From the NCBI GenBank assembly GCA_021791075.1, contig JAJYXH010000087.1, positions 1 through 32,812 of the forward strand: a stretch of 32,812 bases of DNA, given 5' to 3'. Position 1 is the first letter of the stretch. The number at the start of each line of letters is the position of its first letter. The notes under the pieces are model-generated. The model searched no databases. It was not told the DNA's origin and saw only the letters and a list, made by a program, of their open reading frames with translations. Of the stretch, positions 5,052 to 7,174 are shown piece by piece. Source of the stretch: Candidatus Micrarchaeota archaeon (GTDB lineage Archaea; Micrarchaeota; Micrarchaeia; Micrarchaeales; CABMGC01). Position numbers and translations under genes: made by a program.

Positions 5052-5423
5052 TCATCTGGTTATATTGTCCTCTTCCGACTCCGTGATTCCAAAGCCATTG
5101 CCGTGCACAGATCTGATGCTGACAGGAGCATCGTCATTTCTCTTTATCCTGGAGAAGAGCACAACAATGGCGCTTCCGCCTGCCTGCACCTCTCCTATTC
5201 CCTCCACAACAGGGGTTATCCGGAGTATCGTCTGGAATGCAGAGCCGTGTCCATCTCTCCTCTTCGATTCGAGGCTTGCCTTTTTCTCTGCGTAATCCCT
5301 CTGGTCAAGCCTCTCCTGAAGTTCCGTGGCCCTGTTCGTGTCCTCGATCTCGTTCCCAGGATCAGGACGCAGCAGCATGGCGAGGGGCGACTCCCTGAGC
5401 CTCTCCGCTCGCTGTGCCAGCAT
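5052..5423 (-). CDS. Hypothetical soluble protein (charged N-terminal half, beta-rich C-terminal half)
   Basis: 123-aa ORF preceded by a GGAGGA Shine-Dalgarno-like element 4 nt upstream of the ATG. No family recognised. Confidence 0.45.
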   Translation of the reverse strand: MLAQRAERLRESPLAMLLRPDPGNEIEDTNRATELQERLDQRDYAEKKASLESKRRDGHGSAFQTILRITPVVEGIGEVQAGGSAIVVLFSRIKRNDDAPVSIRSVHGNGFGITESEEDNITR

Positions 5424-5669
5424 CTTCTCCTCCCAATTACCTATCCCGTTTGTGATATTTAAGTTTAGTGATGCAAGGAAGACCTGCAGGCAAGGCTTAA
5501 TAATCAGGAGATGCCAAAGATATGGTTATAGACTTCTTGCAGATGAGGACAGGGATAAGGAGAACTCATGTGACTTGATGCTACCTTCTTGATCTCCTGG
5601 CATGCGTGAAGTAGTACCAGAGAACCAGAATTATTATCACTACTGCCACTACTGCTGCAATCACTGCTC

Positions 5670-6013
5670 CTGCAGAGGATCTGTTTTATCGGTTCTCAGA
5701 GATTGGCCAGACTTAGGGAAATCCTGCTGAATGCCGGGTGCCATAGTCGATATTGTGAAATCCTCCCACGTTTTAAAACGTGGGCTTCCCTCGCCTCTAC
5801 GGCGATTCGGTAAACGCGACCATTCCTCTCGGAGCCTTTCGCATGGGTTATGGTGAACAGAAACGCAACCCATGGGCATCCGCTCATTACGCGTCCGCGC
5901 GACTTCTGTTGAATCTCTATTGGATGTCCGATTTATATGCCTTCTCACGCCCCTAGCCCACCATTGAAATGATGGGTTTGCGTGTCGGATCATTTATCAT
6001 TACAGATCTGCAG
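5670..6013. ncRNA. Candidate structured non-coding element (large ncRNA or MITE-like element), class and strand unresolved
   Basis: It lies in a ~640 bp gene-free gap (5424-6064) in an otherwise tightly packed window, and its GC content is close to that of coding DNA. The terminal arms CTGCAG-AGG-ATCTGT (5670-5684) and ACAGATCTGCAG (6002-6013) are complementary over 12 nt with a 3-nt bulge. Internal hairpins are a perfect 20-nt palindrome CCCACGTTTTAAAACGTGGG (5765-5784), TCGCC/GGCGA (5791-5805), CATGGGTT/AACCCATG (5842-5874) and 5957-5976. The last hairpin has a G.U pair if transcribed from the minus strand and a C.A mismatch on the plus strand. The ORFs overlapping it (5661..5993 and 5696..5887) have implausible W/R-rich composition. 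Confidence 0.35.
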
Positions 6014-6026
6014 CGAACCGTGTGGA

Positions 6027-6034
6027 TTATATAT
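6027..6034 (+). promoter_or_regulatory. TATA box (TTATATAT) for the DUF929 gene
   Basis: An archaeal TATA-like octamer ends 31 nt upstream of ATG 6065. That spacing fits a leaderless or very short-leader mRNA. Confidence 0.45.
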
Positions 6035-6064
6035 CTTCACTGGCAAAGCTATTCTGGTATTGAT

Positions 6065-7174
6065 ATGCCTGTTAGAAAGAATGTTAGGAACCGTCCGGTG
6101 AGGAGCAGAGGATACGCACCTGCCGCAGGGGCAGGAGTCCTTGTTATTGCTGCCCTTGTGCTTGCGGTAGCGGCTCTTGCAGTAGCATCTTATGCGGTGT
6201 ACGCCACGCTCTCGAGCCCTGCGCAGCAACTTGGCCAGCTTACCTCAAACCAGATAAAGAACCTGGTAAACCTCTCTTACGGCCGCTCCGCCACTTCCAT
6301 TGCAAACACATCCGGTGGAAGCAGCTTCGGACACACCACTGCAGGGATAAATCAGCCACTTAATGCCAGCGCTCTTGCTGTGATAAACGACGCTCCAAAC
6401 TCGTACTTCGAGACCGCTGGACTGATGTACCTCAACGGCTCCATACAGAACGAGGTTCTTCCGAACTATGCCCCGGTAAACGCCTTCATGGTCAACAACA
6501 AGCCTTCGGTAGTTTACCTTGGATCGATAACATGCATCTTCTGTGGTGAGAACCGGTGGGCGATGGCGCTTGCGCTCTCGAGGTTCGGAAACTTCTCGCA
6601 GCTCTTCCAGGGATACAGCTCCTACAGCGACTATGACGTCCCGACGCTGTACTGGAACGTCGCGAACTACACGCGGCAGGACACGCTTGCGGTTGCACCG
6701 CACGCGATATCCTTAGGCGCATACTACTCCAGCAGGTACATAAACTTCCTTCCGATAGAGGGCCAGGGCAACATAACTGGTGGCTTCTTCATCCAGTCGC
6801 TGCCGGTCATAGGCGCGGAGGTAAACAACACCGGCAATGCAACATACAAGAGCGTATTCAGCTACCTGCTCGGGCTTCAGGGAAGCAACTCCACGTCTTT
6901 CAAGGGCACGCCTTACACCATATGGGGCAACAGCCTCTTCGGAGGCGCGGATGCCGTGGACTTCGGAAACACGACACCACAGTCGCAGAGCCTGCCCCTC
7001 ACTTACATGACCCACGGGCAGGTTCTCTCGCAGCTCGGAAACCCTAACGACCAGTTCGCATGGACCGAGTACGCTGCGGCTGACATATACATAGCAGGGG
7101 TGTGCAGGTCCATCAACAACACGGCTCCGGTCTGCAACCTGAGCGCTATACAGAGAATTGAGACTCTCAAGTAA
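6065..7174 (+). CDS. Membrane-anchored DUF929-family thioredoxin-like protein, probable glycoprotein
   Basis: The start is set at ATG 6065 (MPVRKNVRNRP...). A basic N-terminus is followed by one TM helix (GVLVIAALVLAVAALAVASYAVYA). The motif GSITCIFCGENRWAMALALSRFGNF matches the CxxC-(A/G)ExRW signature of archaeal DUF929 proteins. The ectodomain carries 13 N-x-S/T sequons and a second Cys pair near the C-terminus (CRSINNTAPVC). Confidence 0.8.
   Translation: MPVRKNVRNRPVRSRGYAPAAGAGVLVIAALVLAVAALAVASYAVYATLSSPAQQLGQLTSNQIKNLVNLSYGRSATSIANTSGGSSFGHTTAGINQPLNASALAVINDAPNSYFETAGLMYLNGSIQNEVLPNYAPVNAFMVNNKPSVVYLGSITCIFCGENRWAMALALSRFGNFSQLFQGYSSYSDYDVPTLYWNVANYTRQDTLAVAPHAISLGAYYSSRYINFLPIEGQGNITGGFFIQSLPVIGAEVNNTGNATYKSVFSYLLGLQGSNSTSFKGTPYTIWGNSLFGGADAVDFGNTTPQSQSLPLTYMTHGQVLSQLGNPNDQFAWTEYAAADIYIAGVCRSINNTAPVCNLSAIQRIETLK

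Follow-up and report, generated by a model that had tools for sequence, protein, structure and literature searches.

A gene-less 245-bp element of the IS200/IS605 family, probably retaining a transposon guide-RNA scaffold, in the longest non-coding gap of a Micrarchaeota contig

The longest non-coding gap in a contig of a Candidatus Micrarchaeota archaeon contains a sequence of 245 bp, read on the minus strand from 5999 to 5755, that with a probability of about 0.82 is a non-autonomous element of the IS200/IS605 family, and more specifically a deletion derivative of a tnpB element resembling the palindrome-associated transposable elements (PATEs). All positions refer to the window, which is the whole stretch of 32,812 nucleotides that was analysed. 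Both ends of the sequence are homologous to those of tnpB elements, its boundaries are exact, its copies lie in different contexts, it is non-coding, its stems covary, and the genome that carries it has both tnpA and tnpB. The element is a new sequence family of a kind that has already been described, and it probably includes a structured RNA, a transposon guide-RNA scaffold, encoded on the minus strand.

Crude tiling of the window with open reading frames (ORFs) leaves a gap of 641 bp, at 5424-6064, as the longest stretch without a credible gene; the runners-up have 463 and 429 bp. The GC content of the gap is 0.45-0.58, and the original prediction had been right in describing it both as the longest non-coding stretch and as coding-like in composition. 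The gap is bordered on the left by a minus-strand ORF ending at 5423 and on the right by a gene identified as DUF929 by a Pfam match, with its ATG at 6065; a longer ORF from 5969 is an upstream extension of the latter. The ORF on the left (123 amino acids, 5052-5423, minus strand) has neither a Pfam match nor a DNA-level homologue in 30 relatives, and if it is not a gene then the non-coding stretch is longer. In the closest relative (G011), the DUF929 promoter is homologous from approximately 6024 onwards and another gene lies upstream of it, which makes 5424-6023 a lineage-specific block. To the left of the gap, not even this relative has its genes in the same order. The features in and beside the element are the following:

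5755-5999, minus strand: the whole gene-less mini element; its homologues in G159, G001 and G093 (two copies) end here and have unrelated flanks.
5933-5999, minus strand: left end (LE), with an inner imperfect hairpin and an outer stem that has two mismatches in the window copy.
5996-5999, minus strand: TGAT at the LE junction, either a target or transposon-adjacent motif or the first bases of the element.
5931-5938, minus strand: TATA box ATATAAAT, corresponding to the tnpB promoter in full-length copies; its promoter activity is predicted from sequence.
5755-5926, minus strand: omega-RNA-like scaffold of ~170 nt ending at the right-end boundary, supported by covariation and a covariance model.
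5765-5784, minus strand: hairpin of the right end (RE), a perfect 20-nt palindrome.
5755-5766, minus strand: terminal RE motif GGAGGATTTCAC (family consensus GGAGGnTGTCAC); in all copies similarity ends sharply past ...TCAC.
5735-5754, minus strand: predicted guide segment of the omega RNA, in unique DNA just past the RE, placed by analogy with the known architecture of TnpB omega RNAs.
5656-5699, minus strand: relic, 45 nt long, of an IS605-type (tnpA + tnpB) element, from its tnpB 3' end and omega-RNA region; it does not belong to the mini element.
5670-5684, no strand assigned: left arm of a 12-bp helix, CTGCAG-AGG-ATCTGT, inside the 45-nt relic.
6002-6013, no strand assigned: right arm of this helix, ACAGAT-CTGCAG, in unique DNA 2 nt outside the LE and not conserved in any other copy.

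The limits of the element are given by its copies in other genomes. Among 30 relatives searched, a genome of the same genus (G001) matches 5754-5999 at 86% identity over 256 columns, and the match stops at both ends. A wider search of 248 genomes of the order, with only the internal 150 nt as the query, gave full copies in G159, G001, and G093 (two) that are 77-86% identical. The five full copies, including that of the window, share 245-257 bp; all end at the equivalents of 5755 and 5999, and their flanks are unrelated on both sides. A sixth copy, also in G001, is cut by a contig end and is 99% identical to its sister in that genome, and two further sequences of the order (in G076 and G062) are fragments or variants. 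The four full copies and the cut copy outside the window come from three genomes belonging to three genera in two families. The same genomes were recovered when the GTDB species representatives were scanned with a pattern, and all of them are Candidatus Micrarchaeota MAGs. The genome to which the window belongs (hereafter the own genome; 0.98 Mb in 108 contigs, 84% complete) holds a single copy of the whole mini element. A scan of metagenome contigs with the 20-nt core pattern returned isolated 20-mers and no element, and a scan of viral contigs gave no copies. No empty site was found for the window flanks in 30 relatives, for the flanks of the four other copies in the own genome, or for the G001 copy in 30 relatives. 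The original prediction had proposed a search for extra copies in the genome and its relatives as a check, and the five copies in three other Micrarchaeota genomes made this the decisive test. A second, unrelated type of mini element of ~305 bp is present in G001 (C31, locus L048:1658-1962); it has the same left end, a right end of the C25 type described below, and a different body that seems to include an inverted fragment of the tnpB 3' region.

The ends of the element relate it to transposons of the own genome. The segment 5933-6000 recurs there at 84-91% identity on contigs C25, C31, C8, C33, and C5, while 5753-5789 recurs at ~80% identity on six contigs; nearly all of these repeat copies are no more than a few hundred bases from the end of a contig, and their boundaries are sharp and one-sided, with unique DNA beyond. 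On C25, the first of these repeats occupies 15-82 and is followed by the TATA-like sequence ATATAAGG and then by an ORF of 407 amino acids with HTH_OrfB_IS605, OrfB_IS605, and Cas12f1-like TNB domains, which identify it as TnpB. Because the repeat and ATATAAGG directly precede TnpB, the former is the LE of a tnpB element, and the minus-strand TATA-like box at 5938-5931 of the window, found as the original prediction had placed it, corresponds to the tnpB promoter. The LE also occurs in many further copies in relatives, and the TATA box is kept in five of the six mini copies, the sixth having ATACAAAT. At the other end, each tnpB copy in the genome has the same succession of gene 3' end, GGAAGCC, hairpin, GGAGGnTGTCAC, and unique DNA. 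The arrangement in the window is identical, with GGAAGCC, the palindromic hairpin, and then GGAGGnTnTCAC from 5790 to 5755. The stem of the RE hairpin has at least nine versions across the RE copies of the family, all of which still pair; the perfect palindrome, already noted in the original prediction, is one of these versions.

A complete IS605-type element with both TnpA and TnpB is present on C30, where the two genes overlap by the usual ATG/TAA junction. Its TnpA (C30:148-543) matches Y1_Tnp with E = 1.6e-36 and has visible HUH and Tyr motifs. This is the only intact tnpA found in the genome, as against at least 13 tnpB-like loci; a second, distant Y1_Tnp match is on C106. A solo copy of the LE (G000:C5:8632-8692, locus L006) has no TATA box and is ~65 nt upstream of an alpha/beta-hydrolase gene (Abhydrolase_6), with neither tnpB nor a right end nearby. 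IS200/IS605 ends are found within a few hundred bases of the ends of contigs C8, C9, C11, C18, C24, C25, C28, C31, C33, C38, C43, C68, and C89, and with so many contig ends affected, the family is probably among the chief reasons why the assembly is in 108 pieces.

Elements of the IS200/IS605 family have subterminal hairpins, not terminal inverted repeats, and do not duplicate their target. The mini element has subterminal hairpins at 5957-5976 (LE) and 5765-5784 (RE) that are not inverted copies of each other, and none of the aligned copies has a duplicated flank. The LE hairpin has one C/A mismatch on the plus strand that becomes a G.U pair on the minus strand, in agreement with the original prediction. 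All 12 aligned LE copies have TGAT at the junction, preceded by a variable base; as TGAT(A) may be the target motif and not the element, the left boundary is uncertain by ~5 nt. A classical MITE, derived from an insertion sequence with a DDE transposase and having terminal inverted repeats and a target-site duplication, would likewise be small, gene-less, and present in multiple copies across genomes, but each end here matches the corresponding end of tnpB elements, the ends are not mutual inverted repeats, and the duplication is lacking in every copy, so that this origin is scarcely credible. The suggestion of a MITE-like element in the original prediction was close to this in that the sequence is probably a non-autonomous mobile element, but was not correct in its limits (5670-6013 instead of 5755-5999), its terminal inverted repeats, its closing helix, or the target-site duplications that were to be looked for.

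The helix on which those limits were based does exist, with 6 + 6 bp around a 3-nt bulge. Its occurrence by chance had been put at a few per thousand; in fact, when the 641-bp gap was shuffled 2000 times with its dinucleotides preserved, a 6 + 6 helix whose arms are 150 nt or more apart and whose bulge does not exceed 3 nt arose in 97 shuffles (~5%). Nor does it bound the unit, given that homologous copies stop at 5755 and 5999 with unrelated flanks. The helix is absent from all other mini copies. The frequency in shuffles, the missing arms in other copies, and the lack of significant similarity between the right flank and the relic family make chance its most likely origin. A second, inverted IS605-type relic made up of the right arm and its flank was considered and rejected as chance similarity: more than half of 2000 shuffles did equally well against the consensus, as did 125 of 2000 against the relic in the window.

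The relic that contains the left arm is 55 nt from the mini element. It is 91% identical to C30:1710-1754 and 87-93% identical to many copies in relatives (G026, G017, G015, G010); the complete genome G026 has nine copies of this tnpB 3' region, which is extremely conserved in IS605-type elements. In intact copies an RE comes next, and since 5699 to 5656 has none, this relic is dead. Tandem CACTACTGC is present twice at 5638-5655. The same region, 5581-5685 on the minus strand, contains a stop-to-stop frame of 34 codons without a start codon, whose product would resemble a C-terminal membrane anchor, with a hydrophobic helix ahead of ...HARRSRR and the stop. Possibly insertions have destroyed a gene and this frame is what is left of its tail, or else it is due to chance; a short tblastn search found no homologue in the own genome. 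On the opposite strand, overlapping the 45-nt relic, an ATG-initiated ORF of 42 codons (5602-5730, plus strand) encodes a YYHYCHYCCNHCSC-like run with six cysteines and is probably spurious.

The other possibility raised in the original prediction was a free-standing structured non-coding RNA of ~344 nt, at 5670-6013, closed by the helix and possibly of the RNase P or SRP class. In favour of such an RNA are the helix itself and a fold of the 344-nt stretch that is somewhat better than those of its shuffles (z = -2.0, with 3 in 100 as good). It has no Rfam match even at E up to 10, however, and the homologous unit ends at 5755 and 5999, and the arms are in no other copy; moreover, a comparable helix is found in ~5% of shuffles and the left arm comes from an unrelated relic. 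In the whole window there is no Rfam match at gathering thresholds, and 5300-6200 searched at E up to 10 gives only chance-level matches to microRNAs and sRNAs. RNase P RNA is located on another contig (C41:3715-3955, 104 bits), as is the best candidate for SRP RNA (C67:2323-2616, 58 bits, E = 6.5e-13, below the Rfam cut-off of 96.5 bits). The scattered motifs reported as similar to RNase P CR-I and CR-II accordingly lack support, and a free-standing RNA of this size is very improbable.

A small protein gene is another possible reading. An ORF of 110 codons with an ATG start is open in the window on the minus strand at 5661-5993, but it has no Pfam match and spans the LE, the RE, unique flank, and the relic. 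Each homologous copy has two to seven stops per frame, the frame of the ORF itself gains further stops in three of the four copies, and the ATG is missing in three. The chance that it is a gene is close to nil, and with stops in every frame of every copy and the ATG lost in three, the mini element is non-coding.

Six related sequences (five mini copies and the diverged G062 copy) were used in a covariation analysis, and their alignment also supplied the structure under test. The ~170 nt between the TATA box and the RE have a consensus fold of several stems, with 93.7% of cells paired. Eight base pairs have changed on both sides, as compared with 4.0±1.4 in shuffles (3 of 500 shuffles reach eight), and the covariation score is 0.233, against 0.148 in shuffles (none of 500 reach the observed value) and at most 0.084 in controls with slid partners. 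Several conserved G.U pairs fit the minus strand only. In the end hairpins, covariation could reflect DNA hairpins needed by TnpA, and not RNA. The single-sequence fold of the putative RNA is no better than those of shuffles (z = -1.1).

The scaffold was also compared with full-length elements, using a covariance model built from mini copies only and run over the whole genome. The model scores 186 bits at the window scaffold and matches the 3' ends of eight tnpB genes (on C38, C18, C28, C24, C9, C68, C25, and C107) with E from 8e-7 to 9e-3. All eight matches finish exactly at the RE boundary; their scores are modest, at 18-32 bits, and derive for the most part from the RE hairpin and a single 5' hairpin. 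These correspond to the two modules shared in alignments, namely the RE hairpin with its flanking motifs and a 5' hairpin that has a GGAYA loop and is succeeded by GAAG, or by GAC in mini copies. The 5-bp stem of the 5' hairpin is wholly different among subfamilies, being CCCTC/GAGGG, CCGAA/TTCGG, GGGAG/CTCCC, or CGCGC/GCGCG. The omega RNAs of TnpB begin inside the tnpB coding region, and in full copies the GGAYA hairpin is inside this region as well. Because the scores are modest and subfamilies do not align in the middle part, it is likely but not proven that the scaffold is homologous as a whole.

A model of how the element would work can be drawn from the established scheme for the IS200/IS605 family. 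On this reading, four parts of a full-length element are kept: the LE with its imperfect hairpin, the tnpB promoter, the ~170-nt omega-RNA scaffold region, which in full copies overlaps the tnpB 3' end, and the RE hairpin with the terminal motif; some 1.1 kb of tnpB has been removed. A Y1 TnpA supplied from elsewhere, such as by the intact gene on C30, would recognise both hairpins on single-stranded DNA and move the element without target duplication to a position beside a short motif, probably TGAT. The internal TATA box would drive a minus-strand transcript from approximately 5912 through the right end, which would be an omega RNA with the adjacent flank (~5754 to 5735) as its guide. TnpB from full-length copies might then use this omega RNA in trans and cut emptied donor sites, so that the element would be restored by recombination. 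Transcription, the omega-RNA function, and mobilisation in trans are inferred, as is any current activity of the window copy. The guide-like flank (5729-5754) matches only itself in the own genome, besides chance-level matches of 9-15 nt.

The window copy itself has private lesions. The two mismatches in the outer LE stem and a G to T change in the terminal motif are peculiar to it, as is a deletion of 9-10 nt that shortens the 5' hairpin of the scaffold, and because of these lesions the copy may be inactive. They can be taken further, to mean that the copy is an inert leftover of a mini or full element that was once active, now neither transcribed nor mobile nor serving as a guide, in a gap that has become a junkyard of insertion-sequence debris. 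The presence of a clearly dead IS605 relic close by would fit with this, as would the lack of another copy in the own genome and a gene order on the left unlike that of the closest relative. Against it, both ends, the TATA box, and all of the predicted stems are still there, the RE hairpin remains a perfect palindrome, and the architecture has been kept with compensatory changes in the four full copies and the cut copy elsewhere, at 77-86% identity. Death of the window copy is on this evidence unlikely, while retaining an appreciable share of the probability.

In several respects, a non-autonomous IS200/IS605 element in this gap resembles known systems. Like PATEs, it is gene-less and has both of its subterminal hairpin ends in common with tnpB/tnpA elements of the same genome; by analogy, it would also be like them in keeping the omega-RNA region and having TnpA and TnpB supplied in trans. 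Archaeal PATEs are reportedly mentioned for Haloquadratum walsbyi, and PATE-like elements encoding omega RNAs that are used in trans have been described in Geobacillus stearothermophilus (PMC10055086). Unlike known PATEs, the present family has as its host a Micrarchaeota (DPANN) archaeon, is new in sequence and limited to Micrarchaeota MAGs among the GTDB species representatives scanned, and has retained an archaeal tnpB TATA promoter directly before the scaffold. The RE motif and hairpin architecture are those of the IS1341-type (tnpB-only, C25:15-1346) and IS605-type (tnpA + tnpB, C30:~40-1800) elements of the own genome, the LE is 87% identical to that of C25, and their GGAYA loop recurs in the scaffold's 5' hairpin. 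Unlike in these elements, ~1.1 kb of tnpB coding sequence is absent and the middle of the scaffold is unalignable to any full-length subfamily. The omega RNA (reRNA) of ISDra2-type TnpB extends over the tnpB 3' end as far as the RE boundary, takes its guide from the flank, and has ~150-180 nt with several stems. The window scaffold is like it in position and size; it has no detected similarity to it in sequence or at the level of Rfam, and its own binding, processing, and use of a guide are putative.

The current understanding of IS200/IS605 transposons is not changed by this element. The longest non-coding gap of the window is accounted for and one candidate for a new large non-coding RNA is struck off, while a small gene-less IS200/IS605 family is documented in DPANN archaea, with genomes of ~1 Mb; in the full-text literature that was searched, there were only incidental mentions for the phylum Micrarchaeota and no reports of such elements. 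The scaffold is compact and naturally minimised and has partner TnpB genes, and could serve the study of archaeal TnpB systems. A diverged copy in G062 (C1, locus L022:1443-1629), located ~25 nt upstream of a tRNA gene, combines the TATA box and the scaffold with an end like the RE, but no left end can be recognised. Such a copy may be a guide-RNA gene that has become fixed or domesticated, or else an element that has been truncated.

The deletion that gave rise to the family took almost all of tnpB and spared the promoter and the guide-RNA scaffold, which is the pattern expected if selection preserves the guide RNA itself. Tentatively, and at somewhat less than even odds, the mini element may be a functional, promoter-equipped 'guide-only' gene of a self-standing omega-RNA family that spreads between Micrarchaeota genera, with TnpA and TnpB borrowed from other elements. 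If so, then the G062 copy beside the tRNA gene would be a fixed and possibly domesticated guide gene, and the family would be a parasite of an RNA-guided homing system that could redirect resident TnpB nucleases to new sites.
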